Source: an uncultured Nitrospirales bacterium (GTDB lineage Bacteria > Nitrospirota > Nitrospiria > Nitrospirales > NS-4). Taken from it: a stretch of 64,000 nucleotides of DNA. Position numbers and translations under genes: made by a program. Under the pieces are notes generated by a model. It saw only the letters and a list, made by a program, of their open reading frames with translations. It searched no databases and had not been told where the DNA came from. Where the stretch lies: the NCBI GenBank assembly GCA_964384595.1, contig CAYLLY010000003.1, positions 198 to 64,197 on the forward strand, in the 5' to 3' direction. Shown piece by piece: positions 13,716-34,280 of the stretch; the first letter of the stretch is position 1; each line of letters starts with the position of its first letter.

Positions 13716-15073
13716 TCATAGACGACGAGCCGGAGCTGCTCGAGAATTGCCGCCGCATCCTCTCAACGAGCGGCTATCGGTGTCTGACCGAAACCGATCC
13801 GGTCAAGGCCATTGGCGAGATCGAGCGGGAACACCCCGCCCTGATCCTGACGGACCTGAGGATGCCGACCATGAGCGGGATCGAAGTGGTGAAGGCGGCC
13901 AAGAAAATCGACCCGGATTCGGTGGTGATCTTGTTTACCGCCTTTGCGGCGGTGGAGACGGCCGTCGCCGCCATGAGGGAAGGGGCCTTCGACTACCTCT
14001 CGAAGCCGTTCTCGTCCGCCGATTTCGAGCTGGTCGTGCAGCGGGCCATGGAGCACTACAACATCCTCCATGAGAACAAGTATCTGCGCTCCCAGCTCCA
14101 GGAGCGTTTCTGCTTCGACAAGGTGATCGGCGTCAGCGAGGCGATGCAAGAGGTGTTCTCGCTTGTTCAGAAGGTCGCCAAAGCCCAGTCGAATGTCTTG
14201 ATTTACGGGGAAAGCGGGACGGGGAAGGAACTGATCGCGCGGACGATCCACGCGAACGGTCCCCGTGCGGCCAGGCCGTTCATCCCCGTCGACTGCGGCT
14301 CCCTGGCGGAGACGCTTCTGGAGTCCGAGCTCTTCGGGCACGAGAAAGGGGCCTTCACGGGCGCCCATGCGACCAAGCAGGGCTTGTTTGAGGTGGCCGA
14401 AGGGGGCACGATCTTTCTGGACGAAATCGGGGGGATGAGTCTGAACCTCCAGTCTCGCCTGCTCCGTGTCCTCCAGGAGCGCCAGGTCAGGCGAGTCGGC
14501 GGCACGAGATTTCTTGACGTGGATGTCCGGGTTATTTCGGCCTCGAACCGGGACCTGAAGGAAGCGATCAAGAACGGGACGTTCCGCGAAGACCTGTTTT
14601 ACCGTCTGAACGTGGTACAGATCACTCTGCCGCCCCTCCGTGGCAGAGCCGGGGATGTCCCGATCTTGGCGAACGCCTTTCTGCGACACTTTGCGGAAGC
14701 CAATAAGGAGACGGTCAAAACGCTTGACCCGCGCACGGTCCGCTGCCTTGAGGAATATCACTGGCCTGGCAACATCCGGGAACTGAGGAACGTGATCGAG
14801 CGCGCGGTCACCCTGGTGGATGGCCCGACGTTGTTGCCCGAGCACCTTCCCGAAGGCATCAGGTACGGGGCTCTCGAAGAATCCCGGGCCGAGGGGTCGA
14901 CGATGATGGCTGCGAAACAGGCCATCATCGGCGCCTTCGAGCGCAATTACTTGGTGGACCTGCTCAAGAGACACAAGGGACACATCGGGCACTCGGCCCA
15001 AGAGGCCGGGGTGGATCGGAAGACAGTCGAGCGCATGCTCAAGAAACACGGCCTCAAAGCCAACGGGAACTGA
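13697..15073 (+). CDS. Sigma-54-dependent response regulator (NtrC family enhancer-binding protein)
   Basis: Receiver ILIIDDEPELL...LILTDLRMP. AAA+ Walker A GESGTGKE. Sigma-54 contact motif GAFTGA. C-terminal HTH HSAQEAGVDRKTVERMLKKHGL. Overlaps the kinase gene by 19 nt. Confidence 0.92.
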   Translation: MDGKILIIDDEPELLENCRRILSTSGYRCLTETDPVKAIGEIEREHPALILTDLRMPTMSGIEVVKAAKKIDPDSVVILFTAFAAVETAVAAMREGAFDYLSKPFSSADFELVVQRAMEHYNILHENKYLRSQLQERFCFDKVIGVSEAMQEVFSLVQKVAKAQSNVLIYGESGTGKELIARTIHANGPRAARPFIPVDCGSLAETLLESELFGHEKGAFTGAHATKQGLFEVAEGGTIFLDEIGGMSLNLQSRLLRVLQERQVRRVGGTRFLDVDVRVISASNRDLKEAIKNGTFREDLFYRLNVVQITLPPLRGRAGDVPILANAFLRHFAEANKETVKTLDPRTVRCLEEYHWPGNIRELRNVIERAVTLVDGPTLLPEHLPEGIRYGALEESRAEGSTMMAAKQAIIGAFERNYLVDLLKRHKGHIGHSAQEAGVDRKTVERMLKKHGLKANGN

Positions 15074-15075: not shown

Positions 15076-18000
15076 TTACTTCTCCTTCGCGCCACGCAGG
15101 CTCTGCAACAGCTTGAGTGCCGGCTCGTGATAGGGATTGATCTGCAGCAGTCGCTCCAGCTCCGCGATGGCCAGTTCCCTCCGGTGAGCTTTCAGGTAGA
15201 CATCGGCCAGATGTAAACGGGCCTCCGTGCTGCCGGGATAGAAGGTGAGGACGTGTAGCAGCGCATCGCGCGCTTTCTCGAAGTCTCCGGCCGCGTGATA
15301 GGCCCCGGCGAGGGTCAGGTAGTATTGATAGTCCCGCTCATTCTGTGGACCCATCTCCTGCAGCAGCTCGATGGCCGGGCCTAACTCCCGGCGCTCGGCA
15401 AGAATGCCGATCAGTGCGGACCGCGCCGTCTTGTCGCTCCGGTCGCGCGTGAGGGCCTCCGCGTACATGACCCTCGCCTTCGAAAGGTCTCCCTTGAGGC
15501 CGTAGACCTGGCCCAGCACCTTGCGGGCTTCGGTCGAGTCCGGCGAATATTTCAAGGCCATGGTCGCCGAGGTCTCGGCCCCTTCGATCTGGTGCAGCTT
15601 CAAATTGATCTGCGCCAGCCGAATGTGGGCGGGACCGTTCTCCGGCGACCGCTGAATGTTGGACAGCAGGCGGTCCCGTTCCTGCCGGAGGCGGGGGCCG
15701 TCCCGTTGCAGTTTTTCATAGGCGATCCTCATCGAGTTTCGCGCGCGCTCCTGGTGGAACCGGACGTTGCCGTCCGCAGGGTCGATGACGGCGGCCTCCT
15801 CGAGTGCGGCCTCATCCCCGAAGAAGAAATACCGTTGCATGGCACGCGCGAGAACCTGCCGCTCCTCCACGAGGCGCAGATCGTCCGCGCTCGCGCCTCT
15901 CAGGTACGGTTGGATGCTCGTCTGATGCCGGTCGAAGCTCTGGGTGCTGAGGGGCGTGTTCCCGCGAACGGCATGCTTCTGACTGTAGGGCAGGTCGTCG
16001 GTGTTGGTGCGATGTTCATCACCGATGAATCGCGCGATCGCGTCCGGATCCATGACGAAAAATCCGGCCAGGCGGGCCGCGCGGTCCAATTGGTATTGTT
16101 TGAGCCGGACCGTTGCGGACGCCTGGTCGAGGCGTTTTTGAATCCGCGGCAGATCGAAGATAAAGGGGCCCGGTGTGGCGATCAGGAAGGCCTGGTCGGT
16201 CCCATAGATGTTCCAAAGCGTGGTGTTCGGGAAGACCGTGGTGAAGGTTTTGAGCAGGATGCGGAAGTTTTCGACCGAGATGTCGCTGAGCGGGATCCAT
16301 TGGGCGAAGACGCCGTCCGGCGTCAGGCGATTCCTGACCGTGCGGTAGAACTCCTCCGTATACAAGATCCAACTGTCATACGCGCGGGGATGAGTCGAGT
16401 CGGAAATGATGACGCCGTACCGTTTTGAACTCCGCAGCAGGAAATTGCGGCCGTCTTCGGCGACAAAGCGGAATCGGGGATCGTGGTAGACATCACCGTT
16501 GATCTCCCGGAAAAGCTCATTGATGGAGGCCACGTCCGGATTCAAGTCCACGCACGTCAGGGATGAGACCAGCCCGGAGCCCAAGGTCGCCCCGGAGGCG
16601 ATCCCCGCGCCGAACGCCACCATGAGGGCCTCCTGCGGAGCATCGGAGGGGTGCATGACGGCCGGCAGGAGACCAAGGAGCTTGAACAATTGCACGTGCC
16701 CGAAGCGCGTGGACGCCTCTTCGACGCCGTTCAGGAACATATCGCGAAATCCGAGCCACGGGAAATCCAGGACGATCGCCGTGGCGACGGCTCCTTCATG
16801 GTACAGGCGGACCGCCGGGTCGGGATCCTGCCCGCTGTAGGAGGCCAGCTTGCGCGTGTACAGGTCTTCCAGTACGTGCGGGCGATAGGCCAGTACGCCG
16901 ATCGCCAAGAGCGCTGCGGCCAGCGCGACTCCCAATTTCTTCATGGGAGCCTGAAGCGCCAGCAACAGGAGCAAACCGGCCCCCAGGCACGCCACGGAGA
17001 AGACGGCCAGGACGCCTTCGATTCCCAGAAGCGGGACCAGAAAGGCGTTGGTGAGGCCGGACCCGAGCATCCCGCCGACAGTATTCACCGCGTACAGAGT
17101 GCCGGCGTTGCTCACGGAGGCCGAGGGACCGAGAGGGGACCGGAGCACGCGAATGGCCAGCGGGAGGAGGCTGCCCAGGATGCATGCCGGCACCAGGAGA
17201 ACGATCACCACGAATGTGTCCGGCAAGTGTGTTACCCGGCCGAGTTCGACCTGCGAGAGGTGGAGGAGAAGAAGGGGGGGCGCCAGAACGGCCGGACCTG
17301 CCAGCATGGTGAAACCGGCCAGGGCCGGTCCGCTTCCTTGGACATGCGAGCCCAGGACCGTCGCTCCCAGCGCGCTGAGCCCCACGCCCATGAGGAAGGC
17401 GGTGACGACGAGGGTGAAGACGAGCAGCTCGTTCCCGAAATACAGGATCACGAGCCTCGTGACGAGGACTTCATATGAAAGGGCGATGAACCCGGTCACG
17501 AAGGTGCTTATGAGGACGATGTATCTCAGGGCCGGCGGGAAAACGGGGTCAGACCCCGTTTTGTCGGCGGGTTCTCCCTCTCCCCGAAGAAGGAAAACGG
17601 GGTCTGACCCCGTTTTCGCCTTCGCGAGCCCTTCGATTGCCAGCCCGCCTGAAGCCGCCAGGAGACTCAGGCCGCATGCCCATGCGAGTGTGAGGTCGGC
17701 CCCCCAGCGAGGCAGCAGGAAATAGCCCGCCACAACGGCTCCGAACGCCGCGCCCAGGGTGTTCACCCCGTAGAGATAGCCGGTGCGGGACGCGGTCAAG
17801 GGCGAGCCGACCGAGGCTGAGCCTGCCAGGATGGCTGGAAACGTCGCGCCCATCAGGAACGCCGGGACGAAGAGGCAGGCAAAGGCAAAGGCCAGCCTCA
17901 CGAGCTGCATCACGGGAAGAGACGCGGAGTCGCCGGCGACTAGGAGGTAGAGCTGTGATGCCGGATCGAACAAGTAAGGAGAAGAGACCGCATAGGCGCC

Positions 18001-18330
18001 GACACCGACCTCCAGCCAGGCGTACACCCTCAGGGACGGCCGTCTCCGGCTGAGCATGCGGCCGCTCACATAGCTTCCGAAGGCCAGACCACCCATGAAG
18101 GCGGCCAGGATCATGCTGGTCGCCGCGAGTGTGTTGCCGAGGACCAGCACGAGCATCCGCGCCCAGGTGATCTCGCAGATCAGGCTGCTCGCCCCGGACA
18201 GGAAGAAGATCGAGTAGAGCAGGATGAGTCGGGCGCGAGAAGAATTGGGGTCAGAGTCGGATTGTTGGTTTTTTGCCAGGCCCACGGTCTTCGCACTCCT
18301 CAAAAATCGACTCTGACTCCAATTCTTCAA
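15076..18330 (-). CDS. Fused polytopic membrane / spermidine-synthase-like methyltransferase-fold / TPR protein
   Basis: 1084-aa ORF. N-terminal multi-TM part (LLYSIFFLSGASSLICEITWARML...). Central SpeE-like fold (ALMVAFGAGIASG...VDLNPDV...YGVIISDSTHP). C-terminal TPR repeats. The start is a TTG at 18330 with GGGG 5 nt upstream, so the start is uncertain. Confidence 0.82.
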   Translation of the reverse strand: MKNWSQSRFLRSAKTVGLAKNQQSDSDPNSSRARLILLYSIFFLSGASSLICEITWARMLVLVLGNTLAATSMILAAFMGGLAFGSYVSGRMLSRRRPSLRVYAWLEVGVGAYAVSSPYLFDPASQLYLLVAGDSASLPVMQLVRLAFAFACLFVPAFLMGATFPAILAGSASVGSPLTASRTGYLYGVNTLGAAFGAVVAGYFLLPRWGADLTLAWACGLSLLAASGGLAIEGLAKAKTGSDPVFLLRGEGEPADKTGSDPVFPPALRYIVLISTFVTGFIALSYEVLVTRLVILYFGNELLVFTLVVTAFLMGVGLSALGATVLGSHVQGSGPALAGFTMLAGPAVLAPPLLLLHLSQVELGRVTHLPDTFVVIVLLVPACILGSLLPLAIRVLRSPLGPSASVSNAGTLYAVNTVGGMLGSGLTNAFLVPLLGIEGVLAVFSVACLGAGLLLLLALQAPMKKLGVALAAALLAIGVLAYRPHVLEDLYTRKLASYSGQDPDPAVRLYHEGAVATAIVLDFPWLGFRDMFLNGVEEASTRFGHVQLFKLLGLLPAVMHPSDAPQEALMVAFGAGIASGATLGSGLVSSLTCVDLNPDVASINELFREINGDVYHDPRFRFVAEDGRNFLLRSSKRYGVIISDSTHPRAYDSWILYTEEFYRTVRNRLTPDGVFAQWIPLSDISVENFRILLKTFTTVFPNTTLWNIYGTDQAFLIATPGPFIFDLPRIQKRLDQASATVRLKQYQLDRAARLAGFFVMDPDAIARFIGDEHRTNTDDLPYSQKHAVRGNTPLSTQSFDRHQTSIQPYLRGASADDLRLVEERQVLARAMQRYFFFGDEAALEEAAVIDPADGNVRFHQERARNSMRIAYEKLQRDGPRLRQERDRLLSNIQRSPENGPAHIRLAQINLKLHQIEGAETSATMALKYSPDSTEARKVLGQVYGLKGDLSKARVMYAEALTRDRSDKTARSALIGILAERRELGPAIELLQEMGPQNERDYQYYLTLAGAYHAAGDFEKARDALLHVLTFYPGSTEARLHLADVYLKAHRRELAIAELERLLQINPYHEPALKLLQSLRGAKEK
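17540..17562. repeat. Perfect 23-bp palindrome inside the CDS (copy 1)
   Basis: AAAACGGGGTC-A-GACCCCGTTTT, with 11-bp arms. Translated in frame as KTGSDPVF. Confidence 0.9.
17594..17616. repeat. Perfect 23-bp palindrome inside the CDS (copy 2)
   Basis: AAAACGGGGTC-T-GACCCCGTTTT, 54 bp (18 codons) from copy 1. Also translated as KTGSDPVF. Confidence 0.9.
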
Positions 18331-18352: not shown

Positions 18353-18360
18353 CTTCTAGG

Positions 18361-18375
18361 GCAATTTGTATGCCT
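18361..18375 (-). promoter_or_regulatory. Candidate sigma-54 (-24/-12) promoter facing the 15076-18330 gene
   Basis: The minus strand reads AGGCAT-ACAAA-TTGCC. GG-N10-GC spacing is exact. It lies about 30 nt upstream of the TTG start. Confidence 0.4.
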
Positions 18376-18685
18376 GCTGTCTTGCATAGGCCGGTTTCGA
18401 TGGGACTCCGGCGCCCCATTCCGACATTGCCTCCCTGCATCCGCATTAATCGTTTGAAAACGCGCAATCTTAGCGCGCCTTGCCCATCCCGATCCGACAA
18501 AGTTGTCTGCCCGCTGGCGCACGATACTCTCAGCCGGCGCAGCGGTGCGCGTCGAAGAGGACTCGACAATGCTCGGTAAAACAACACGTTGAGAAGGGCA
18601 CAGTCGAATCGCTCCTCGATGCAGACAACAGGCAAGGATCATGCTCTAGGTGCAAGGGGCGCTCTGTTCATCTGGAGGTTATACC

Positions 18686-21166: not shown

Positions 21167-22003
21167 ATGTCGTACCCGTTCATCTTCCCGTGCATCGTGC
21201 ATCTGCCGGCCGGATATGACTGCACCATCCCCCTGCCGTATGAGAGTGTCGCGGATCGGCTGATCGGGGGCAATGGGACGGTCACCTACGGGGTCCAGGT
21301 TTTCTGCGCCGGCGCGAAGCGGGCCGAGTGGAGCGAGAAGCTCATCTTTGCAAACGGCGGCTTGGTCGGACCCCCGCCTGACCCATTCACCTGGCGGGAC
21401 GCGGGCGAGGACTGGGGTGGCAACTCCGGCTACCTTGAATTGAGCTTGCAGGCCGCCGATGCCCGTCCGATATTTCATGCCCGGGCGCCGATCAGCTTTT
21501 ACTCGATCTATACCAAGCCTGGGAAGAAGGCCTTCTTCTCCGACAACGCGTACAAGTATGGGGCCCCGCCGGTCATCGCCCAGATCGCGGCGTTCGGCCG
21601 ATTTGTGGAGGGCTATCCGGTCGTTCATCTCGACCGGGAACGTGACCTCGGCCAGACGCTCGCCCTGATCAATCCCTATAAGAAGGTGGTCAGTGCCCGC
21701 ATCTTCACCTGTGACGGCCGGGCGCTCGGGCCGTTGAAGGTCCAGCCGGCCAGCGTGCGCCTCATTCGGCTGACGGATTTGTTGCGGCCTGATGAGACCT
21801 CATGGGCGGGACAGCTCCAGCTCACCGCCAACAATCGGGTGGTGACCTACGTCATGATGCATTCGTTGCGGAGCCCGTGCGTCTTATCGGACCATGAGCA
21901 CTTGGATGTTTTCCGCAGCGATCCGACTCATATCCCGGCCTTTCAGCTTCTCCGGCGCCGGATCGGTCAGCTCCTTAGGTCTCGGGGGTTCGTCATAAGG
22001 TGA
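21167..22003 (+). CDS. Hypothetical protein
   Basis: ATG21167 lies 8 nt after the previous stop (track ORF starts at 21077, inside the previous gene). High-GC3 coding pattern. No recognisable motif. Confidence 0.65.
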   Translation: MSYPFIFPCIVHLPAGYDCTIPLPYESVADRLIGGNGTVTYGVQVFCAGAKRAEWSEKLIFANGGLVGPPPDPFTWRDAGEDWGGNSGYLELSLQAADARPIFHARAPISFYSIYTKPGKKAFFSDNAYKYGAPPVIAQIAAFGRFVEGYPVVHLDRERDLGQTLALINPYKKVVSARIFTCDGRALGPLKVQPASVRLIRLTDLLRPDETSWAGQLQLTANNRVVTYVMMHSLRSPCVLSDHEHLDVFRSDPTHIPAFQLLRRRIGQLLRSRGFVIR

Positions 22004-22242
22004 GATGACCGGCTGGGACCGCGACTCCGCATTGGGACATTCTTTCCCGATTCGGCGAAATGACTTGAAAACACAAAGACTTGCCCCGGTTCGGCGGCGT
22101 TCGCAGCTGCTGAAGGCGTCTCATTGTACGGGGAGAAGAAGGCGCAACAGCCCTACGCAGGCATACAGGCCATCCGCCGGAATCCATCGTTTTTTCAAGT
22201 CAATAGGCCGCGCCACCCAGGAAGCTCCTTGGGGAAAGCTGA

Positions 22243-22258
22243 TGGCATCGCCATTGCT
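22243..22258 (+). promoter_or_regulatory. Sigma-54 (-24/-12) promoter candidate for the peroxidase/Rieske/Mo-enzyme array
   Basis: TGGCAT-CGCCA-TTGCT (consensus TGGCAC-N5-TTGCW) with exact GG-N10-GC spacing. It sits in a 383-bp non-coding gap, about 130 nt upstream of the 22387 start. Confidence 0.55.
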
Positions 22259-22386
22259 GTATCCGAAGAAAAGGGAAAAGGGAAACCTGCAAGCCTTGGT
22301 TCGAGAAAGGGGGGATGGTGCAAGGAGGTCGGAGCAAGGAGCAGGTTCGAGAAAAGGCGTAAGACAGCCTGAAAGGGGGGAGTGAA

Positions 22387-23589
22387 GTGGAGAGAAAAAA
22401 GAACAAACTATGGACATTCGTCATTTTGCTGTTCGGTGTGGCGATTGTGGCGGCTATGACGATGGCGTGGACCGCCTGGGCCGGAAACAACGAGGGCAAG
22501 ACCCCTCGTCCGCTCGCGGCCCTGCCGCCGGGCCCGCACCCGGGACCGGCGGACAACCCAACCACTCCGGAGAAGGCCAAGCTGGGGGAGTTGCTCTTCT
22601 TCGAGCAGCGGTTGTCGGGTGACGGGAGCACGCCCTGCTCCAAGTGCCATGATCCGAAGCAGGGATGGGGAACGACGGACGATCTCTCGATCGGCTATCC
22701 GGGGACGCAGCACTTCCGCAACTCGCACACAGTCCTCAACACCGGTCACCTGAAGAAGTATTTCTGGGAGGGCCGGGCCACGAGTCTTGAGGCCCAGGCC
22801 GGCGGCGCGGCGGGCGGGCAATCGGCCGGCAATCTCCAGTTCGACATAGGGGAGGCCCGGATGCGCCAGGTGCCGGAGTACCGGGAGATGTTCATGAAGG
22901 TCTTCGGCGAACTGCCGACCTGGGACAACGCGGCGCGGGCGATCGCGGCCTTCCAGCGGACGTTGAACTCGGATCCAAAGGTAGTCCCGTTCGACCGTTA
23001 CATGAACGGCGACAAGAGCGCCATGACCCCGCAGCAGGTCAAGGGCATGGAGCTCTTCAAAGGCAAGGCCAACTGCATCGCCTGCCACGATGGGATGATG
23101 TTCACCGACGAGGACCATCACAATCTCGGCCTGCCGCGCAACCCGGCCTTCGACGACGATCCGCTCAGGCAGATCGAGTTGCGGTTCCGCATGAAGTCGA
23201 ACGGCATCCAGAACTACAACGAAGTGGACGAGGATTTGGGACTCTACATGGCGACCCACCGGACGCAGGACATCGGGCGGTTTCGCACCGAGAAGCTGCG
23301 TGAGTCGAAGCACACGGCGCCGTACATGCACAACGGCGTCTTTTCCACGCTGGAGGAAGTCGTCGAGTTCTACGACAAGGGCGGCGAGGAGCCGGGCAAG
23401 TTCAAGGGCGTCAAGGACCCGCTCATGAAACCGCTGGAGCTGACGGCCGACGAGAAGAAGGCATTGGTGGCGTTCCTCGAGGCGCTCAGCAGCCCTGAGA
23501 CTCCGTTCAAGGACATCAACCCGGTCCTGCCGAAGGACGGGATCGTCACGGTGGACAAAAAAGTCGTGCCGCTGCCGGCCGGCAAGTAG
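22387..23589 (+). CDS. Di-haem cytochrome c peroxidase (CCP/MauG family)
   Basis: GTG start after gggggag. N-terminal TM/signal. Two CxxCH motifs (CSKCHD, CIACHDG). Conserved APYMHNGVFSTLEEVVEFY segment. Confidence 0.9.
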   Translation: MERKKNKLWTFVILLFGVAIVAAMTMAWTAWAGNNEGKTPRPLAALPPGPHPGPADNPTTPEKAKLGELLFFEQRLSGDGSTPCSKCHDPKQGWGTTDDLSIGYPGTQHFRNSHTVLNTGHLKKYFWEGRATSLEAQAGGAAGGQSAGNLQFDIGEARMRQVPEYREMFMKVFGELPTWDNAARAIAAFQRTLNSDPKVVPFDRYMNGDKSAMTPQQVKGMELFKGKANCIACHDGMMFTDEDHHNLGLPRNPAFDDDPLRQIELRFRMKSNGIQNYNEVDEDLGLYMATHRTQDIGRFRTEKLRESKHTAPYMHNGVFSTLEEVVEFYDKGGEEPGKFKGVKDPLMKPLELTADEKKALVAFLEALSSPETPFKDINPVLPKDGIVTVDKKVVPLPAGK

Positions 23590-23607
23590 GTAGGAGGTAC
23601 AACGACG

Positions 23608-24231
23608 ATGGACGAGAAGGAAACCAAAGACAGCAAACTGAAGATGCTCAAGGAATTGGGCGAGGATGTGGGATGCATGACGCGCCGCAAGCTGCTCTTC
23701 CTGGGCGGCTTGGCCACGGCCACGACGCTGCTCCCGCCGGCCGTTGCGGACACGCTTGCCGCGGCGCCGAAGGCCAAGCCCAAGGAGGCGTCGAAGAAAC
23801 CGACGCCGGTGGCGATGCAGAGCACGCATTACCCGAGAAAGAAAGTCGGCAAATTGAGCGCGTTGAAACAGGACGAGCCGGTGAAGATCTCCTATCCGGC
23901 CGAGCATCCGAATCACAAGGCGCTGCTCATCAAACTGGGCGTGCCGGCGCTCGGCGGCGTGGGTCCGCAGAAGGACGTGGTGGCGTTCAGCGCGCTGTGC
24001 GTCCACCAGGGCGGACCGCTCGAAGACCGGTACAACGCGAAGGAAAAGATCATGGGGCCGTGCGAATTCCATCTCTCAATGTACGATCTCACGAAGCACG
24101 GGATAATCACGAGCGCGTCGGCGACCCAGAACCTCCCGCAAGTTGTGCTGGAGGTGGAAGGGGACGACATTTACGCGGTAGGGATGCAGGGGCTCATCTA
24201 CGGGTTCCCGGACAACCTGCTGCCCGTCTAG
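23608..24231 (+). CDS. TAT-exported Rieske [2Fe-2S] small subunit, AioB/IdrB-like
   Basis: RBS aggagg (23591-23596). Twin-arginine TRRKLLFLGGLATA. Rieske boxes CVHQGG and CEFH (C-x-H ... C-x2-H). 18-nt gaps to both neighbouring genes. Confidence 0.88.
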   Translation: MDEKETKDSKLKMLKELGEDVGCMTRRKLLFLGGLATATTLLPPAVADTLAAAPKAKPKEASKKPTPVAMQSTHYPRKKVGKLSALKQDEPVKISYPAEHPNHKALLIKLGVPALGGVGPQKDVVAFSALCVHQGGPLEDRYNAKEKIMGPCEFHLSMYDLTKHGIITSASATQNLPQVVLEVEGDDIYAVGMQGLIYGFPDNLLPV

Positions 24232-24249
24232 ACGTAAGGGGGTGAAGAC

Positions 24250-26919
24250 ATGAGTAAGGCAGGAATCAACGTATCATTCGCCACCGTCGTTCCGGAGGAC
24301 AAGGTCCCGCTGCCTCCGCCCGACGCGAAGATCTATCCCACGGCCTGTGACTATTGCGTCGTGGGGTGCGCGTACCGGGCGATCGTCTGGCCGGTCGGCA
24401 AGGAGGGCGGCCCGAAAGCCAATCAGAACGCCTACGGCGTGGATTTCCCGATCACCGAGGCGCAGGCCGGGAACTGGGCCACGCCGGAGCAGCACACGAT
24501 CGTGCTGAAAGACGGGGAGCCGCACCACTGCATCGTAATTCCGGCGATCAGCGAGCGGGTGAACCGCTCGGGCAACCACAGCATCCGGGGCGGGAACATC
24601 GCCCAGAAGTGTTACAGCCCGGTGAAGCCGACGTCGGACCGGCTCCAGACGCCGCTGATGCGGGTCCGGAATGTGCTGGTACCCATCTCCTGGGAGGACG
24701 CGACCACCATCACGGCCGAGGTGGGGAAGTATGTGCTCGACAAGTACGACGAGCTGGCCTACGGGGCCCAGACCTTCTCGTACCAGTTCTGGGAGAACAC
24801 CTACGCGATTACCAAGCTCCTGCTGCAATCCATCGAGACGCCATGCTGGGCGCACCACGACAAGCCGTCGGCCCAGGGCGACGCGGTCGGAATGGAGGAT
24901 GCGGGGATCGACACGTTCGGCTCGGCCTATGAGGACTTCAAGCTGGCCGAGGTGATCTATATCTCAGGGGCCGACCCCTACGAGAACCAGACCATCATGT
25001 TTACCGAGTGGATCATGGACGGGGGCGCCAAGTTGATCAATGCGCTGCCCCGCAAGTCCACGGGGGCCGCGTACGGCGAGAAGAACGGCGGCCTGTTCCT
25101 CCAGGTCATTCCGGGCACGGACCCTGTGCTGAACAACGCGATGTGCCGGGTCATCATCGAGAACGGCTGGGAGGACAAGGAGTTCATCGCCAAGTGGTGC
25201 GCCGACGACGAGGAGATTGACTGGGGCATGGGTCGCGGCGTCCGCAACACGCCCTGGCAGTGGCGGACGACGCGGTGGGGCGTGTCCTTCGCGAAGTGGA
25301 AGGACTGGCTCCTGAAGGACGAGTTCACGACGCTGGAATATGCGGAGAAGACGACGGGGGTTCCGCGCGCCAAGATCGTGAAGGCGGCGGAGATGCTGAC
25401 CGGCGGCGGGAAGGGCCCGCGCCCGAAGGCGTCCTTCCTCCATGAGAAAGGCAACTACTGGTCCAATAACTACCTGAGCTCGACCTCGTTCTGCAACCTG
25501 GGGCTCATCTGCGGCGCCGGAACGAAACCCGGGCAGCGGATCAGCCGGTGCGGCGGTCACCAGCGCGGTGGGATGGGCGCGGCGCCGTATCCCATCACGA
25601 AGACGCCGCAGCGGTTCGGGCGGATCGGCCGGCTGGCGATGGATGTGGACCGGTGGATCTTGAGCAACAACCTTCGGTTCCTGTGGGTGATCGGGGCCCA
25701 GAAGCTCGAGAACTCCTGCGCGAATGGCGCGCTGCACGACTATTTCCGGCAGCATGTGACCCTGTCGCCTCATCAGATTGACAGTACGGATCCGAAGCGG
25801 GCGATCGAAGTGCTCAAAGCGCGGGTGGACAACCAGGATATCGTGTGCGTCAACTCGGAAATCTATCTGCGGACGTTCGGCAACCAGTACGCGGACATCG
25901 TGATGCCGGCGGCGACCTGGGGCGAAGAGGACTTCACTCGCGCGCAAGGCGAGCGGGTGATGCGGATCTATTCCAAGTTCTACGACCCGCCGGGCGACGC
26001 GAAGCCCGATTGGTGGATCATCTCCCAGGTGGCGAAGAAAATGGGGTTCGAGGGGTACAACTGGAAGTCCTCCCAAGATGTCTTCAAGGAGGCGGCGCGC
26101 TTCTCGCGCGGCGGGATTCTGGAGTACGCGCCGTTGTTGCCCTACGCCAAGCTCAAAGGGAAGGAGCCCTATGAGTTGCTGCGGGAGCGGGGCGCCATGG
26201 GGTACCAGACGCCGCTGCGGCTGCACGACGGCGAGCTGATCGAGACCAAGCGGACCAACGACGAAACGGCGGCGCCCATGATCGAGACCCCGCAGGGGAT
26301 CTCGACCATGCAGAAGCGGCTCTCGGGATTTACCCGGCCGTCCGGCAAGGCGCTCCTGCACAAGGTGGACTGGAAGCTCTACAAGGACTTCCACGAGGCC
26401 ATCAGCCCCAAGAAGGAGAAGGGCGAGCTGTGGGTTACCAACGGGCGGGTCAACGAGATCTGGCAGTCGGTCTTCGACGACATGCGGAAACCGTACATCA
26501 TGCAGCGGTATCCGATGAACTTCGTCGAGATCCACCCGGAGGACGCGAAGGCGCGGGGGATCGAGAACGGCGACATCGTGTCCATGGAGAATGACGAGGT
26601 CTTTGTCCAGACCGGCGGCTTCTACTTCCTGCGGGATTCGGACGCGCTGTTCACGAGCCTGATGAAGAACGGCCACATCAAGACGACCAAGGGGTCGGCG
26701 ACGGCCATGGCGATCGTGACGGATGCCGTGCAGCCGGGGCTGGCATACCAGTACTTCCTGTGGCCGGGCGCGAGCGGCAACGCGCTGGCGCACAATGTGC
26801 CGGATCCGATCACCAATGCCCCGCGCTACAAGACGGGGAAGGCGGTGATCAAGAAGATCGGCACGCTGCCGGATCGCCTGAAGGCGCGCATCACGTGGGC
26901 GAACAAGAACGCGGTATAG
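24250..26919 (+). CDS. Molybdopterin (bis-MGD) oxidoreductase large subunit of the arsenite-oxidase (AioA) / iodate-reductase (IdrA) family
   Basis: 889 aa. N-terminal C-x2-C-x3-C (CDYCVVGCAY), as in the AioA 3Fe-4S site. No signal peptide, consistent with TAT hitch-hiking on the Rieske partner. MGD-binding-type segments (YISGADPYENQ, CGGHQRGG). Adjacent to the Rieske subunit. Confidence 0.9.
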   Translation: MSKAGINVSFATVVPEDKVPLPPPDAKIYPTACDYCVVGCAYRAIVWPVGKEGGPKANQNAYGVDFPITEAQAGNWATPEQHTIVLKDGEPHHCIVIPAISERVNRSGNHSIRGGNIAQKCYSPVKPTSDRLQTPLMRVRNVLVPISWEDATTITAEVGKYVLDKYDELAYGAQTFSYQFWENTYAITKLLLQSIETPCWAHHDKPSAQGDAVGMEDAGIDTFGSAYEDFKLAEVIYISGADPYENQTIMFTEWIMDGGAKLINALPRKSTGAAYGEKNGGLFLQVIPGTDPVLNNAMCRVIIENGWEDKEFIAKWCADDEEIDWGMGRGVRNTPWQWRTTRWGVSFAKWKDWLLKDEFTTLEYAEKTTGVPRAKIVKAAEMLTGGGKGPRPKASFLHEKGNYWSNNYLSSTSFCNLGLICGAGTKPGQRISRCGGHQRGGMGAAPYPITKTPQRFGRIGRLAMDVDRWILSNNLRFLWVIGAQKLENSCANGALHDYFRQHVTLSPHQIDSTDPKRAIEVLKARVDNQDIVCVNSEIYLRTFGNQYADIVMPAATWGEEDFTRAQGERVMRIYSKFYDPPGDAKPDWWIISQVAKKMGFEGYNWKSSQDVFKEAARFSRGGILEYAPLLPYAKLKGKEPYELLRERGAMGYQTPLRLHDGELIETKRTNDETAAPMIETPQGISTMQKRLSGFTRPSGKALLHKVDWKLYKDFHEAISPKKEKGELWVTNGRVNEIWQSVFDDMRKPYIMQRYPMNFVEIHPEDAKARGIENGDIVSMENDEVFVQTGGFYFLRDSDALFTSLMKNGHIKTTKGSATAMAIVTDAVQPGLAYQYFLWPGASGNALAHNVPDPITNAPRYKTGKAVIKKIGTLPDRLKARITWANKNAV

Positions 26920-26931
26920 GGGGAACGAATC

Positions 26932-26960
26932 TGGGGGACAGATTTGAAATCTGTCCCCCA
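26932..26960 (+). other. Perfect intergenic stem-loop (14-bp arms)
   Basis: TGGGGGACAGATTT-G-AAATCTGTCCCCCA, 13 nt after the Mo-subunit stop. No following T-tract. Confidence 0.8.
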
Positions 26961-26983
26961 TCAAATCAGGGAGGATTAGAGCG

Positions 26984-27730
26984 ATGGGCAAGTATAGGTT
27001 TGTAATGGCGGCCGTGGCGGCGATGGGGCTCGTGGCGGCGCCGGCGGCATTCGGATATGAGGAAGCGGCTGTGAGCGACGGGGGCGCCGTCACCGGCAAG
27101 ATCAGCTTCAAGGGGAAGGTCCCTGAGCCACAGCATTTCCTGGTGCAGAAGAACCCTGACGTCTGCGGGAAGGAGCGCGATTTTCCGTTCGTGCGGGTGA
27201 AAGACGGAGCGCTCCAGAACGTGGTGGTGGTCATCGAAGGCATTGAAAAGGGGAAACCCTTCACGCACGCGCCGACCGAGTTTATCGGGAAGGAATGCGC
27301 GTTTCTTCCGTATGTGTCGTTCGTGACCAAGAAGGGCGTGGACGGGTGGCCGGTGTTCAAGATCGAGAACACGGACACCGTCATTCACAATCCCCACACC
27401 TATGCGATCGCGGGGGCGACGCGGGTGACGTTATTTAACGTCGCATTGCCGGAGAAAGGCTCCAAGCTGGAGAAGGAGCTGAAGAACAGGAAAGGCAACG
27501 TCATCAAGCTGGAGTGCGACCAGCACGACTTCATGCACAGTTGGACGCGGGTGGTGGAGCATCCCTACTTCGCGGTGGTGGACGACGGGGGCGCCTTCAA
27601 GATCGACGGCGTGCCGGCAGGCAAGTACAAGCTCGTGGCGTGGCATCCGATCCTGGGCGAGCAGACGGCGGAAGTAACCGTCGCGGCCAAGGGATCGGCG
27701 AAGGCGGATTTCACGTTCGCGGGAAAGTAA
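26984..27730 (+). CDS. Secreted cupredoxin-like protein with putative type-1 Cu site and C-terminal beta-sandwich domain (paralog of 5223-6173)
   Basis: Signal peptide MAAVAAMGLVAAPAAFG. Candidate Cu ligands NTDTVIH and CDQHDFM (C-x2-H-x2-M). C-terminus GGAFKIDGVPAGKYKLVAWHP...AKGSAKADFTF. Confidence 0.85.
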   Translation: MGKYRFVMAAVAAMGLVAAPAAFGYEEAAVSDGGAVTGKISFKGKVPEPQHFLVQKNPDVCGKERDFPFVRVKDGALQNVVVVIEGIEKGKPFTHAPTEFIGKECAFLPYVSFVTKKGVDGWPVFKIENTDTVIHNPHTYAIAGATRVTLFNVALPEKGSKLEKELKNRKGNVIKLECDQHDFMHSWTRVVEHPYFAVVDDGGAFKIDGVPAGKYKLVAWHPILGEQTAEVTVAAKGSAKADFTFAGK

Positions 27731-27748
27731 AGAAAGGGGTGAAAGACA

Positions 27749-28918
27749 ATGAGTAGGCGAGGGAAAAATCTGATGGGGTTGGCGGCCTTCGTGGTCGTGT
27801 CGGGGCTTGCCTTGGTCGTGGCGCCGAGCGTCAATGCGGCCGAGACGGATCTGGGCCCTCTGCCGGCCTTGAAGGTGGATGAGAAGAAGGCGGAGCTGGG
27901 CAAGCTGCTGTTCTTCGACAAGCGAATGTCGGGCGATGCGGCGAGGTCTTGCAATGAGTGCCACAATCCCAAGAAAGGGTACGGAGACGATAGGGCGCTC
28001 TCGGAAGGGTATCCGGGGACCCTGCATTGGCGGAATGCCCAGACGCTGCTGAACGCGGCGCACCAGAAGGACCTCCACTGGCCGGGCTCGCAGGGCGACC
28101 TGGATACGTCCATCCGGACCCATGTGACCGGATGGATCCTCCTGAACGACGACGGGCGCGCCCTGGAAGAGCGCATGATCCTGGTTCCGGAGTATCGGAA
28201 CCGGTTCACGGAAGTGTACAAGATCAAACGGCATCCGATGTTCGGGCAGATCATGGGGGCGCTCTCGGAGTTCGTGAAGACGCTGGTGTCGGACCCGAAG
28301 AAAGTGCCGTTCGACCGGTACCTGGGCGGGGACCAATCGGCCTTGACGCCTCAACAAGTGAAAGGCCTGGAGCTGTTCAAGGGCAAGGCCAATTGCGCCG
28401 CCTGTCACAACGGCCCGCTGCTGAGCGACAAGGGCTACCACAACACGGGCGTTCCGACGAGCCCGGAGTTGTTGACGAATCCGCAGGTGCAGATCGCCGC
28501 TCGGCTCGAGAACATGACGATCGGCGTGTCGGGCTACGACACGATGATCGAGGACCTCGGCCGGTACATGTACACGAAGAACAAGAAGGACATCCGTAAG
28601 TTCCGGACACCGTCCTTGCGGGAGGCGAAGTACACGGCCCCGTACATGCATAACGGGACGCTCGCGACTCTGGCGGACGTGGTCGAGTTCTACAATGCGG
28701 GCGGCGGAAATGATGCGAATAAGGATGCGGCTCTCAAGCCGCTGGGGCTGACCGCGGAAGAGAAGGCGGCCCTGGTTGCCTTCCTGCAGAGCCTCAGCAG
28801 CGACACGTCGCCGTACGCGGATGCCCAGCCGGCGAAGTACGGCGAAGAGGGGTATCCGTATCAGGCGTTGAAGATCAATGAAGGCAAGCCCTGGACGAAG
28901 AAGGACCCGCGGGACTAA
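27749..28918 (+). CDS. Di-haem cytochrome c peroxidase (CCP/MauG family), second copy
   Basis: Signal peptide. CNECHNP and CAACHNG. APYMHNGTLATLADVVEFY. Confidence 0.9.
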   Translation: MSRRGKNLMGLAAFVVVSGLALVVAPSVNAAETDLGPLPALKVDEKKAELGKLLFFDKRMSGDAARSCNECHNPKKGYGDDRALSEGYPGTLHWRNAQTLLNAAHQKDLHWPGSQGDLDTSIRTHVTGWILLNDDGRALEERMILVPEYRNRFTEVYKIKRHPMFGQIMGALSEFVKTLVSDPKKVPFDRYLGGDQSALTPQQVKGLELFKGKANCAACHNGPLLSDKGYHNTGVPTSPELLTNPQVQIAARLENMTIGVSGYDTMIEDLGRYMYTKNKKDIRKFRTPSLREAKYTAPYMHNGTLATLADVVEFYNAGGGNDANKDAALKPLGLTAEEKAALVAFLQSLSSDTSPYADAQPAKYGEEGYPYQALKINEGKPWTKKDPRD

Positions 28919-28951
28919 GGGGTGGTTTGATTCGAACCGAGAGGGAGAGCG

Positions 28952-29419
28952 ATGAGGCGACGGGCGGTCTGTGCGAGCGTAGCGATGGTAGGGCTGGTTC
29001 TGGGTGCGGCGATCGCTTACGGGGATGAGCCCCTCCCTCCGGTGCCGCCGGAATACAACAACCATAGCATGCCGAAAGGCTGGTGGACGGACCCGAAAGT
29101 GATCGCGGCCGGCAAGAAGATCTACACGGAAGGAATGCCCGACGAGGAGGGGAAGATCCAGAAGTGCGCCAAGTGCCATGGAGAAGATGGGAACCCCAAG
29201 CTGCGCGGCGCCAGGGACTTCCGGGCCGAGACGAAGATCAACCGGTATTCGGACAGTTACTTCTTCTGGCGGGTGTCCGAAGGCGTTCCCAAGACCAAGA
29301 TGAAGGGGTGGAAAGAGCGGCTGACGGATGAACAACGCTGGCAGGTGATCGCGTATGTCCATACCTTTTCGCACGGCGGAAAGCCGGAAGAGCACAAACA
29401 CAAGGAGGTCGGGAAGTGA
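28952..29419 (+). CDS. Mono-haem c-type cytochrome, periplasmic
   Basis: Signal peptide. Single CxxCH (CAKCHGEDG). Downstream YFFWRVSEG...MKGW with a Met candidate ligand. Confidence 0.85.
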   Translation: MRRRAVCASVAMVGLVLGAAIAYGDEPLPPVPPEYNNHSMPKGWWTDPKVIAAGKKIYTEGMPDEEGKIQKCAKCHGEDGNPKLRGARDFRAETKINRYSDSYFFWRVSEGVPKTKMKGWKERLTDEQRWQVIAYVHTFSHGGKPEEHKHKEVGK

Positions 29420-29493
29420 GGATGACCGGGAGGCGGGCCCCGGCGGGCTGAGCGAGTTGGCCGCTGCCGGCTCCGGAATACTGTGGACAGCGT

Positions 29494-29871
29494 ATGCCGA
29501 ACGGCGGTCGTTTGGCGAGGGTGGCATTCATGCTCGTGAGTCTCATGATTACGATCCTGACCGGGGTGGCCGTTCCGGCTGAAATCCATGAGGTGACCTT
29601 GCTGGACCGGGCGCCGTTCTACAGTTCCGGTCAGACGGTCAAGGTGACCGTCGGCGACACGGTCAGGTGGAAGAACCCGATGACGAAGGACGGCGCGACG
29701 CATACGGTGACGCAGATGGGATGCCTGACGGGCGATGCGTGCGAGTTCGATTCAGGGGTGTTGGCGCCGGGCCAGACATTCACCCACACGTTCACTGTGG
29801 CGGGCACGTTCACGTACCGCTGTCGCCTGCATGCGCTGATGGAGGGGGTCATCGTCGTCAATGGTCAATGA
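29494..29871 (+). CDS. Small blue-copper protein (plastocyanin/amicyanin-like cupredoxin)
   Basis: GDTVRWKNP...GATHTV and YRCRLHALMEG (C-x2-H-x2-M). Alternative start at ATG29530, which has a gaggg RBS. Confidence 0.82.
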   Translation: MPNGGRLARVAFMLVSLMITILTGVAVPAEIHEVTLLDRAPFYSSGQTVKVTVGDTVRWKNPMTKDGATHTVTQMGCLTGDACEFDSGVLAPGQTFTHTFTVAGTFTYRCRLHALMEGVIVVNGQ

Positions 29872-34277: not shown

Positions 34278-34280
34278 GCG

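Follow-up and report, generated by a model that had tools for sequence, protein, structure and literature searches.

A predicted sigma-54 promoter and purine-rich leader in front of an iodate-reductase-like operon of an uncultured Nitrospirota bacterium

A stretch of 64,000 nucleotides from an uncultured Nitrospirota bacterium (the whole stretch is called the window here) contains a long operon for a molybdenum-dependent enzyme, and the gap in front of this operon holds a sigma-54-like motif followed by an unusually purine-rich segment with an 11-nt direct repeat. The question raised by this locus is how transcription of the operon is controlled, and whether the leader and its repeat take part in this control. 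The genes that define the operon are as follows.

22387–23589, + strand: di-haem cytochrome c peroxidase (CCP/MauG family, IdrP-like; PF03150, E 6.7e-41), first gene of the operon
23608–24231, + strand: Rieske small subunit (PF00355)
24250–26919, + strand: molybdopterin large subunit of an AioBA/IdrBA-like enzyme (PF18465, PF00384 and PF01568)
27749–28918, + strand: second di-haem cytochrome c peroxidase (PF03150, E 2e-35)

The AioBA/IdrBA-like subunits score 122 bits with TIGR02694 (cut-off 96) and 415 bits with TIGR02693 (cut-off 359). The closest solved structures of the molybdenum subunit are those of AioA (248 bits), and this subunit is 44–67% identical to relatives in loci flanked by cytochrome c peroxidase (CCP) genes. 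A protein identical to the first CCP is on record (P0001); an exact look-up with an M start gave no match, and the cluster representative was matched. The gene order is P-B-A-(fn3-like gene)-P (P, peroxidase; B, Rieske subunit; A, molybdenum subunit), followed by a cytochrome c, a cupredoxin and a bd-like oxidase. The same CCP-Rieske-Mo-(x)-CCP order was found in Nitrospinaceae and Nitrospira loci, and nearly all of the 80 nearest genomic relatives showed either this arrangement or CCP-CCP-Rieske-Mo, the exceptions being mostly short or truncated loci; most relatives are ordered P-P-B-A. According to a published synteny criterion, cytochrome c peroxidase neighbors separate Idr from aioBA (PMC8692401). 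The first-pass annotation had drawn on aioBA as precedent. Because two di-haem peroxidases flank the enzyme genes, gene neighborhood and synteny place the operon with iodate-reductase-like (Idr) operons and not with classical aioBA.

The motif proposed to drive this operon is located in the 383-nt intergenic gap 5' of the first peroxidase gene.

22243–22258, + strand: sigma-54 (-24/-12) promoter TGGCATCGCCATTGCT, an exact consensus match (16.1 bits)

Inspection of the sequence confirmed both the motif (TGGCAT-CGCCA-TTGCT) and its coordinates, with GG at 22244–45, GC at 22256–57 and a spacing of 10 nt. It is on the same strand as the GTG start codon at 22387 and 128 nt from it, which would place transcription initiation of the CCP operon near 22268–22270. 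Exact matches to TGGCAY-N5-TTGCW number three in the window, where 0.10 would be expected; they are located at 21, 22243 and 52915 on the + strand, and none of 100 shuffles of the window contained at least three. A comparison with background by weight matrix, which the first-pass annotation had named as a check, likewise came out in favor of the motif: with a matrix that approximates the published consensus, six sites of at least 13 bits were found and 1.7 were expected. Each of the six is on the + strand and falls within the non-coding part of the window (~5% of its length), a short distance 5' of a + strand gene.

We compared the promoter region with that of related loci using 3- and 5-sequence alignments and a pairwise view (a 4-sequence MAFFT alignment misplaced the promoter of L082). 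The 16-mer TGGCATCGCCATTGCT is unchanged in L167, L169, L170, L171 and L172. A 22-nt block around it is 82–100% identical between pairs, versus 25–57% for the flanking spacers; between the window and L167, L169 or L171 it is 95% identical, compared with 73% for third codon positions in the CCP gene. Over five related metagenomic loci the promoter has 95–100% identity. L082, an 87%-identical relative, keeps the promoter as GGGCATGATGGTTGCT, and a sigma-54 promoter was also found in L166 and L163, whereas no site was recognizable in L164. By these alignments, the -24/-12 element appears as a conserved island within an otherwise diverged intergenic region, and it is very likely that the flagged motif is a genuine sigma-54 promoter.

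A sigma-54 promoter depends on an activator, and genes for a suitable pair of regulators are located 7 kb upstream of the promoter.

11307–13715, + strand: dCache-HAMP-PAS histidine kinase (Pfam matches)
13697–15073, + strand: NtrC/AtoC-type sigma-54 activator response regulator (PF00158, Sigma54_activat, E 2e-71; receiver domain)

The activator has the GAFTGA motif and a Fis-type helix-turn-helix (HTH_8, 22.1 bits against a cut-off of 22). The order kinase-regulator-TPR-porin-...-CCP is kept in L167 and L169; in L168 only kinase-regulator-TPR is seen and the contig ends there, and in L163 a similar pair of a kinase and a sigma-54 regulator is located directly 5' of the operon. No periplasmic binding protein of the AioX type was detected among the scanned open reading frames of the window. 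No rpoN gene was found within the 64-kb window either; since the activator is intact, we infer that rpoN is present in the genome.

Further sigma-54 sites were found in the vicinity, and two of them belong to the kinase and TPR/porin region.

11264–11279, + strand: sigma-54 site TGGTATTGCTCTTGCT, 5' of the kinase gene (15.0 bits)
18360–18375, - strand: weak sigma-54 site AGGCATACAAATTGCC, 5' of a TPR/spermine-synthase-like gene (15076–18330, - strand; 11.9 bits)

The former suggests autoregulation of the kinase gene, and its equivalent in L167 and L168 is TGGCACGGCTATTGCC (15.6 bits). Equivalents of the latter score 11.9 bits in L167 and 15.2 bits in L169. The first-pass annotation had listed three recurrences of the half-sites. 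That at 52915 is an exact consensus match (17.2 bits). As for the two weaker ones, both are at background level by score (10.5 bits at 49328); the minus-strand site at 18360–18375 is supported, however, by its position and by the upstream element that it shares.

This upstream element is a candidate activator site (UAS), which recurs near the kinase gene and in the TPR/porin region. An A/T-rich block is located between it and the promoter of the CCP operon.

22033–22048, + strand: candidate UAS TGGGACATTCTTTCCC, of the form TGGGRC-N7-CCC(C), centered ~228 nt 5' of the predicted transcription start
11146–11161, - strand: copy of the UAS, TGGGACATGCGCGCCC, ~103 nt 5' of the 11264 site
18401–18416, + strand: copy of the UAS, TGGGACTCCGGCGCCC, in the divergent TPR/porin intergenic region
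22187–22207, strand not applicable: T-tract block TCGTTTTTTCAAGTCAATAG, between the UAS and the promoter

The core of the UAS (TGGGAC-N7-CCC) is invariant or nearly so in L082, L167, L169, L171 and L172, while the rest of the spacer is 51–57% identical, and its distance to the -24 element is 207–211 nt in six genomes. TGGGRC-N7-CCC has four matches in the window versus 1.24 expected, and three of these four are in regions 5' of sigma-54 sites. At the kinase promoter the element is placed at 102–103 nt in three genomes (at 102 nt in L167 and L168), and L167 and L169 conserve it in the TPR/porin region in the form TGGGACAT-N5-CCCCA-N3-GGACAT. Sharing of such an element between promoters, foreseen in the first-pass annotation, was thus seen for the 11264 and 18360 promoters but not for the one at 52915. 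Neither the 8-mer TGGGACAT nor the 13-mer CATTGGGACATTC (mismatches allowed) was enriched in the window on its own; only the longer dyad pattern together with its placement is informative. At ~-228, the candidate UAS is more distal than usual. Upstream repeats of CCCGRTTCGGCG (22046 and 22085) and of AAWGACTTG were also considered and discarded, as relatives do not conserve them.

In the T-tract block, TTCGATTTTTCAAG-CCATAG is kept in L167 and L169 with 70–74% identity, versus 36–57% in neighboring spacers; in L171 the block is 56% identical, which equals the spacer level. It is possible that this block is a bend or an IHF-type site; comparison with the E. coli IHF consensus by eye gave no good match. 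Together, the promoters with this element outline a small enhancer-dependent regulon that the linked NtrC/AtoC-type activator (13697–15073) probably controls, and it is from linkage and the shared motif that we propose this particular protein to act at the candidate UAS. The suggestion that the molybdoenzyme operon is enhancer-dependent is therefore supported by the conserved -24/-12 element, the GAFTGA activator and kinase 7 kb upstream, and the shared upstream element.

The transcript would begin with a leader that has the following features.

22269–22386, + strand: predicted 5' untranslated leader of ~118 nt (75% purine, 13% C)
22284–22347, + strand: predicted leader hairpin, with a basal helix of AACCUGC (22284–22290) and GCAGGUU (22341–22347)
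22298–22308, + strand: direct repeat copy 1, GGTTCGAGAAA, overlapping the inner 5' arm of the hairpin
22344–22354, + strand: direct repeat copy 2, GGTTCGAGAAA, starting in the 3' strand of the basal helix
22375–22382, + strand: Shine-Dalgarno sequence GGGGGGAG, 4 nt 5' of the GTG start codon

The purine-rich leader of ~130 nt described in the first-pass annotation is indeed exceptional: no other 128-nt stretch of the 64 kb is as rich in purines as 22259–22386 (75%, or 4.2 standard deviations above the mean). The remaining sigma-54 leaders of the window are 44–63% purine. Orthologous leaders of L167, L169, L082, L164, L166 and L163 are 67–75% purine (z 2.4–4.3), and purine richness was common to 7 of 7 relatives. 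At the Shine-Dalgarno sequence, the five close relatives all have CCTGAAAGGGGGGAG, unchanged or almost unchanged, and L082 retains AGGGGGGAG. Two candidates for a function of the leader were rejected. A conserved leader peptide was not supported, as the ATG...TAA frame of the window (15 codons, after GGGGGG) has no counterpart in L167 and the frame in L169 is unrelated; for a canonical G-quadruplex, the G-tracts are too far apart.

Could the leader be a specific cis-regulatory RNA, in which the hairpin, together with the recurring motifs GGTTCGAGAAA and GCAAGGAG, would bind a regulatory protein (for example of the CsrA type, with GGA in the loop and at the ribosome-binding site), a small ligand or another RNA, and so control translation or stability? 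Several observations speak for this. The predicted fold has a minimum free energy of -23.6 kcal/mol (z -2.8), with inner helices that pair 22294–22298 with 22335–22339 and 22300–22304 with 22329–22333. In the five closest leaders most of the basal helix is preserved (90% of its cells are paired, with an A-U to G-C compensatory pair), the hairpin as a whole has 87% of cells paired versus 40–60% in slid controls, and its covariation score was matched by 2 of 500 shuffles. An AAGGAGG (22322–22328) is located in the hairpin ~60 nt 5' of the ribosome-binding site, the leaders of the window and its close relatives each have 7–10 GGA motifs and 5–12 SD-like 4-mers, with lower counts in L166 and L163, purine richness is conserved, and the leaders of the window and L171 are 85–91% identical (91% in the hairpin) against 25–56% in the spacers.

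However, GGA and SD-like motifs in such numbers are expected from purine-rich composition alone. The hairpin is weak in the close relatives (z -0.4 to -1.9), and no significant structure was found in the leaders of L082, L164, L166 and L163 (z -0.9 to +0.8). In L167 and L169 the hairpin interior (58% identity) evolves faster than the spacers (71–81%). When 44 related sources were searched with a covariance model of the five close leaders, it recovered its training sequences and no further instance. Rfam 15 gave no match for 21900–22500 with E up to 10 except a spurious one of 8 bits, and none at gathering score in the window, L167, L169 and L082; no csrA gene was seen in the window. The high identity to L171 was at first read as purifying selection; this reading was dropped after L172 showed that L171 is a mosaic, and the similarity may come from recombination rather than selection. 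What the leaders of relatives have in common is purine richness and, in the closest ones, also one basal helix. A specific regulatory RNA of this kind thus seems unlikely to us, and the repeats on which it would draw are absent from four relatives, as described below. We propose instead that the leader would act through its composition and structure.

A more far-reaching idea sees in the leader a new cis-acting RNA element, specific to one clade and belonging to Idr-like operons of Nitrospirota. Such an element would have a conserved basal helix around an exchangeable, purine-rich interior with SD-like motifs; by binding ribosomes or a regulatory protein it would set the stability or translation of the mRNA, and strains would exchange it as a cassette through recombination between the promoter and the ribosome-binding site, both of which are invariant. 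We offer this as a speculation, with the odds clearly against it.

The 11-nt repeat was confirmed at both reported positions and can be extended to 14 nt with one mismatch. In dinucleotide-preserving shuffles of the leader, 79 of 5000 (1.6%) contained an exact repeat of at least 11 nt, so the repeat is only mildly unusual. Copy 1 is kept in L171 and reads TGTCAAGAAAGG or GGTCAAGATAAGG in L167, L169 and L172; copy 2 is GGTTCGAG--AAGG in L171 and GGTTTGGAATAAGG, GGCTTGGAATAAGG or GGCTTGAGCAAAG in L167, L169 and L172. Of the two leader variants, only that of the window, L170 and L171 has the repeat; L167, L169, L172 and L082 lack it. The proposal in the first-pass annotation that the repeated motif might be a regulatory RNA or protein-binding feature finds neither conservation nor a known RNA family behind it, and from these comparisons GGTTCGAGAAA appears to be a dispensable feature of one leader variant or lineage. 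The same distribution bears on the notion that a second transcription factor, acting as repressor or co-activator, recognizes the two copies of GGTTCGAGAAA as direct-repeat DNA sites 46 bp apart and downstream of the promoter, much as AioF serves as second regulator at some aioBA promoters. The rarity of the repeat in shuffles and its retention in L171 fit this notion, and second regulators are documented at aioB promoters (AioF; PMC7533571). On the other hand, the four relatives without the repeat share the promoter, the UAS and the same regulator genes, no copy of the repeat is located near any other promoter of the regulon, and the operon contains no candidate gene for such a regulator; we therefore find the notion very improbable.

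The wider family was surveyed for sigma-54 sites as well. A site of at least 10 bits was found 5' of the first peroxidase gene in 30 of 67 Idr-like loci (45%), versus 7.6% of controls, mostly 60–200 nt and typically ~100 nt from the start codon. This suggests that sigma-54 control ~100 nt 5' of the first peroxidase gene is common to Idr-like clusters of several phyla, although the closest Nitrospinaceae and Nitrospira loci had low scores in this 67-locus survey. A metagenome scan with a single protein as query found no relative, and a scan with an alignment found relatives of at most 59% identity, too distant for footprinting. The idr literature that was searched makes no mention of a sigma-54 promoter or an activator site for idr.

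The last alternative, to which we give hardly any credence, is that the -24/-12 match arose by chance or was conserved for another reason (as an operator with the 5-3-5 palindrome ATGGC-ATC-GCCAT) and that transcription comes from an unrecognized sigma-70-type promoter or from upstream genes: five genomes have the same N5 spacer CGCCA, which is palindromic with the -24 element, and sigma-54 recognition alone needs neither feature, and no terminator was found after the gene 5' of the operon, so that read-through is possible, but the exact consensus is 30-fold over-represented in the window with correct placement every time, distant Idr-like loci have sites at the same relative position with different spacers, L082 retains GGCAT-N5-TTGCT with the palindrome lost, no sigma-70-like promoter was found in 21800–22500, and both the linked activator and the shared UAS are present.

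Taken together, we consider it likely that a functional sigma-54 promoter and a linked activator, acting through a UAS ~210 nt upstream, control the operon, with a leader that may act through composition and structure. RNA polymerase with sigma-54 would wait on the promoter as a closed complex. The dCache histidine kinase, sensing the periplasm, would phosphorylate the NtrC/AtoC-type regulator, which in this form would open the closed complex; it would bind the dyad-like element at its fixed distance upstream, and DNA looping across the T-tract block would bring it to the polymerase. Copies of the element at the kinase/regulator operon (autoregulation) and in the TPR/porin region would make up a small local regulon. 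The promoter would drive a long operon that runs from the peroxidase through the Rieske subunit, the AioA/IdrA-like molybdoenzyme and the second peroxidase to cytochrome c and further redox genes. In the leader, with its single hairpin near the 5' end, the SD-like purine tracts and the stem might favor ribosome loading and mRNA stability, and the few C residues would leave little for Rho to bind. What the sequences show directly is the promoter motif with its conservation, the upstream element at its constant spacing, the neighboring activator and kinase genes and the enrichment across the family; which activator binds, whether the DNA loops, where transcription starts and what the leader does are put forward here as proposals. 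If correct, they provide a testable circuit for an AioA/IdrA-like respiratory enzyme in uncultured Nitrospirota, consisting of a sensor kinase, an activator, an upstream element and four candidate target promoters. Such a circuit could help to find out which signal induces the genes, be it iodate, arsenite or a different oxyanion, and to predict expression in the environment.

Elements that stabilize mRNA or hold ribosomes on standby in the 5' untranslated region include the ompA 5' stem-loop and the STAB-SD of Bacillus thuringiensis cryIIIA. The leader described here resembles these in its length, its 5'-proximal hairpin and a perfect SD-like AAGGAGG far 5' of the true ribosome-binding site, and it is likewise purine-rich and C-poor. 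It differs in being confined to a narrow clade and in having an exchangeable interior, and the likeness is anatomical only.

With classical NtrC-type promoters (glnAp2, nifH and atoDAEB), the promoter shares the GG-N10-GC core with TGGCAY/TTGCW, a dyad-like UAS at a fixed distance, an A/T-rich block in between and autoregulation of the kinase and regulator. In contrast to NtrC and AtoC sites, the UAS of the window has the sequence TGGGRC-N7-CCCC, and whereas classical sites are usually located at -80 to -150, that of the window is at ~-228, with only one clear site at the CCP promoter.

As a type of control, an enhancer-dependent promoter served by a linked two-component system is textbook knowledge, and aioBA is a known case. 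The precedent cited in the first-pass annotation is correct, as aioBA transcription requires RpoN and AioR (PMC7533571). Similar to the AioXSR/RpoN-aioBA systems of Agrobacterium tumefaciens 5A, Herminiimonas arsenicoxydans and Thiomonas, the window has a sigma-54 promoter before an operon with Rieske and AioA-type genes, a histidine kinase and NtrC-family response regulator nearby and a putative activator site upstream (PMC7533571). No AioX-type periplasmic binding protein was found among its scanned open reading frames, however, and its kinase has its own dCache sensor. Moreover, aio neighborhoods have no di-haem peroxidases (PMC8692401), whereas the operon of the window opens with one and contains another, and the aioBA hosts named are proteobacteria, whereas the host of the window belongs to Nitrospirota.

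In the idrABP1P2 clusters of Azoarcus sp. DN11, Pseudomonas sp. SCT and Denitromonas sp. IR-12, the order is A-B-P1-P2 and differs from the P-B-A-x-P of the window. These clusters nevertheless share with it an AioA-like molybdenum subunit, a Rieske subunit and two di-haem cytochrome c peroxidases (PMC10149662; PMC8692401), and in both cases an AtoS/AtoC-like kinase and sigma-54 regulator adjoin the cluster. In Azoarcus sp. DN11, atoS and the sigma-54 regulator gene are located upstream of the idr cluster, and idrA was induced 104-fold in iodate-grown cells (PMC10149662).

The motif TGGCATCGCCATTGCT at 22243-22258, which the first-pass annotation had read as a sigma-54 promoter, is indeed present there, and an enhancer-dependent sigma-54 promoter is the best explanation for it. 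The features on which the analysis is based are as follows:

11307-13715, histidine kinase with dCache, HAMP and PAS domains, seven kilobases upstream
13697-15073, NtrC/AtoC-type response regulator with a sigma-54 interaction domain, GAFTGA and a Fis-type HTH
22243-22258, plus strand, probable sigma-54 promoter TGGCATCGCCATTGCT (GG at 22244-45, GC at 22256-57)
22298-22308 and 22344-22354, direct repeat GGTTCGAGAAA, 14 nt long if one mismatch is allowed
22387, plus strand, GTG start of a di-haem cytochrome c peroxidase (CCP), the first gene behind the promoter
21, 11264, 22243, 48505, 52059 and 52915, plus strand, sigma-54 weight-matrix sites of at least 13 bits

The first CCP gene is followed by genes for a Rieske subunit, a molybdopterin subunit with an AioA-type 3Fe-4S domain, an fn3-like protein and a second peroxidase, and then by cytochrome c, cupredoxin, bd-like oxidase and further redox genes, all on the plus strand. 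The operon spans 22387-35228, where the cytochromes c, the cupredoxin and the subunit of a bd-like oxidase are joined by an EB_dh-like haem protein. Both the Rieske and Mo subunits pass NCBI arsenite-oxidase models, and the closest solved structure is AioA. Among the Mo subunit's 80 nearest genomic relatives, nearly all have two peroxidases adjoining the Rieske-Mo pair, most exceptions being short or truncated loci. According to Reyes-Umana et al., this two-peroxidase neighbourhood separates iodate reductase (Idr, idrABP1P2) from aioBA (PMC8692401); thus, the operon is Idr-like, with a differing gene order (P-B-A-x-P, for peroxidase, Rieske, Mo, fn3-like, peroxidase). Its oxidase linkage raises the question of whether iodate is reduced, or some substrate oxidised, by the enzyme. 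The named homologues of the response regulator are from Nitrospiraceae and Nitrospira, and the window sequence occurs unchanged within a 118-kb JGI metagenome contig. An unknown 278-aa gene (21167-22003) without a Pfam or NCBIfam match adjoins the promoter region upstream; a gene matched by size (262-278 aa) and position occurs in the related loci L167, L169, L172 and L164, and not in L171.

The window has three exact matches to TGGCAY-N5-TTGCW (at 21, 22243 and 52915, all plus strand), against a mean of 0.10 in shuffled sequence, where none of 100 shuffles reached three. With a weight matrix approximated from the published consensus, so that scores are rough, six sites of at least 13 bits were found versus 1.7 expected. 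All six lie on the plus strand, in non-coding sequence (~5% of the window) and 28-129 nt ahead of a plus-strand start codon. The weaker sites proposed earlier, at 49328 (10.5 bits) and on the minus strand at 18360-18375 (11.9 bits), are at background by score alone; the latter is nevertheless backed by an upstream element and by counterparts in L167 and L169 (see below). No sigma-70-like promoter was detectable in 21800-22500. The -24 element and N5 spacer form a 5-3-5 palindrome, ATGGC-ATC-GCCAT (22241-22255), and the spacer, CGCCA, is the same in five genomes, a constancy that sigma-54 recognition does not demand; the palindrome could indicate an overlapping operator.

We gathered orthologous upstream regions from relatives, one of which (L170) is identical to the window. 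The CCP genes of L171, L172, L167 and L169 are ~81-91% identical to that of the window at the nucleotide level; for L082 the CCP protein is 87% identical, and for L164, L166 and L163 60-66%. Between the window and L167, L169 and L171, identity is only 25-57% in the spacers 5' of the promoter and 73% at CCP codon position 3, whereas it reaches 95% in a 22-nt promoter block, with the 16-mer unchanged in all five close relatives. L082 retains GGGCATGATGGTTGCT at the same position in an otherwise diverged region, and L166 has AGGCATAGTGCTTGCT 87 nt ahead of the CCP gene. In L163, TGGCATACCGTTTGCT (17.3 bits) precedes a regulator-porin-CCP-Rieske-Mo operon located directly after a dCache kinase and a sigma-54 regulator. 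The L164 upstream region has no recognisable sigma-54 site. Sites of at least 10 bits within 350 nt ahead of the first peroxidase gene were found in 30 of 67 Idr-like loci, compared with 7.6% of control regions, mostly 60-200 nt and typically ~100 nt from the start codon (Alpha- and Gammaproteobacteria, Nitrospinota). Gammaproteobacterial Idr-like loci (L048, L055-L057, L060-L067, L072-L078) have a common TGGC(C/G)TG-N4-(A/G)TGCA sigma-54-like site ~100 nt before the first CCP gene, and in the leaders of several of them an inverted-repeat motif, TCGGAAYACCGATAAA, is conserved just 5' of the ribosome-binding site.

Alignment revealed a second conserved island, CATTGGGACATTC-N-TCCC (22030-22048), a candidate upstream activator sequence (UAS). 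In the window, L082, L167, L169, L171 and L172 it lies 207-211 nt from the -24 element, despite ~50% identity in between; L166 has a similar ATGGGGCATTCATGTCC ~225 nt upstream. An inverted copy, TGGGACAT-N5-CCCCA, precedes the kinase promoter by 102-103 nt in the window (11146-11161), L167 and L168. Another copy is in the divergent TPR/porin intergenic region of the window (18401-18416), L167 and L169, and supports the minus-strand 18360-18375 site, which has positional counterparts in the latter two. TGGGAC-N7-CCC has four matches in the window versus 1.24 expected, three of them in these promoter-upstream regions. The shared upstream site that the first-pass annotation had suggested looking for is present at the 22243, kinase and 18360 sites; the 52915 promoter, also named in that suggestion, lacks the element and is presumably under a different activator. 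Binding of this element by the linked regulator is probable, and the regulator would then control its own operon, the TPR gene, the peroxidase-molybdoenzyme operon and perhaps the porin gene.

Several further sites were observed. The 18401 copy points to a weak sigma-54 site, AGGCAAGGATCATGCT (18630-18645, 10.6 bits), 229 nt downstream of it and ~40 nt before the JGI-called porin start (18686); this site aligns with AGGCATAGATAGTGCT in L169 and is absent from L167. Just downstream of the UAS is a direct repeat, CCCGATTCGGCG / CCCGGTTCGGCG (22046-22057 / 22085-22096, 39 nt apart), each copy containing a CCGAWTCGG-like palindrome; neither L167 nor L169 conserves the repeat. Four more strong sigma-54 sites (14.0-17.2 bits; 21-36, 48505-48520, 52059-52074 and 52915-52930, plus strand) lie 50-92 nt ahead of plus-strand genes for, respectively, a 1638-aa multicopper-oxidase-like protein, an unknown 196-aa protein, a CBS protein and a radical SAM/SPASM enzyme. 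TGGGAC-N7-CCC is absent from all four, which implies other activators.

Purines make up 75% of the leader (22259-22386; 44 A, 52 G, 17 C, 15 T), and no other 128-nt stretch of the window is as rich in them (4.2 sd over the mean). For the remaining sigma-54 leaders in the window the purine share is 44-63%. It is 67-75% (z 2.4-4.3) in the orthologous leaders of L167, L169, L082, L164, L166 and L163, whose sequences have diverged, and thus composition is a conserved property. Folding gave a hairpin at 22284-22347 (z -2.8), whose basal helix AAsyCUGC / GCwGGyUU is largely kept in the five closest leaders (90% of cells paired) and shows a compensatory change from A-U to G-C. In total, 87% of cells were paired versus 40-60% with partners slid, and the covariation score was matched by only 2 of 500 shuffles; this support is suggestive rather than proof, as the structure was derived from the same five related sequences. 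No equivalent hairpin was detectable in more distant leaders. The leader has no Rfam match; the only one in the window at gathering score is a tRNA gene (61500-61573, plus strand). A second direct repeat, GCAAGGAG (22320-22327 and 22334-22341, 14 nt apart), permits two alternative pairings of CCUUG (22294-22298) with CAAGG. Between L167 and L169 the hairpin interior is 58% identical, diverging faster than spacers (71-81%), and the last 40 nt ahead of the start codon are 97% identical.

The 11-nt repeat was found at the coordinates first reported; exact repeats this long or longer occur in 1.6% of dinucleotide-preserving leader shuffles. The window, L170 and L171 contain GGTTCGAG twice, while L167, L169 and L172 have TGTCAAGAAAGG and GGyTTGGAATAAGG, mutually dissimilar, at the repeat positions, and L082 differs from both variants. 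On this comparison the repeat is a feature of one leader variant, and relatives with the same promoter, UAS and regulators do without it. The upstream spacer of L171 shares 84% identity with L172 and 51% with the window, and for the L171 leader the figures are 45% with L172 and 85% with the window; coding regions of the window, L171, L172 and L167 are about equally distant from each other. By these identities the L171 regulatory region (L171:427-830) is a mosaic. The leader seems to have been exchanged between lineages as a cassette, between an invariant promoter and an invariant ribosome-binding site, or else the mosaic is an assembly chimera. Because of this mosaicism, the high window-L171 identity is not readable as purifying selection.

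The leader probably acts via its composition and 5'-proximal stem. Its purine and SD-like tracts, among them a perfect AAGGAGG (22322-22328), might favour ribosome loading or mRNA stability, and the low C content may leave Rho little to bind. It is possible that the leader is instead a specific regulatory RNA or protein-binding leader, as the helix would suggest, but its interior and repeats are not conserved. The same lack of repeat conservation makes a second regulator binding the repeats at the DNA level unlikely. A chance or non-sigma-54 origin of the -24/-12 motif is very unlikely in view of over-representation, placement, conservation, the linked activator and family-wide recurrence, which also back the initial proposal of an enhancer-dependent Mo-enzyme operon.

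Known systems fit this picture of a sigma-54 promoter: aioBA requires RpoN and AioR (PMC7533571), and in Azoarcus sp. DN11 atoS and a sigma-54 regulator gene are located upstream of the idr cluster, whose idrA is induced 104-fold in iodate-grown versus nitrate-grown cells (PMC10149662). The family-wide sigma-54 signal ahead of Idr-like operons and a defined upstream element are modest new details, and of the system's parts only the leader might hold something new. The circuit in the window works like AioSR/RpoN-aioBA and Azoarcus atoSC-idr; however, it differs from them in host phylum and gene order, in a dCache kinase without an AioX partner, in the sequence of its upstream element and how far away that lies, and in its unusual leader.
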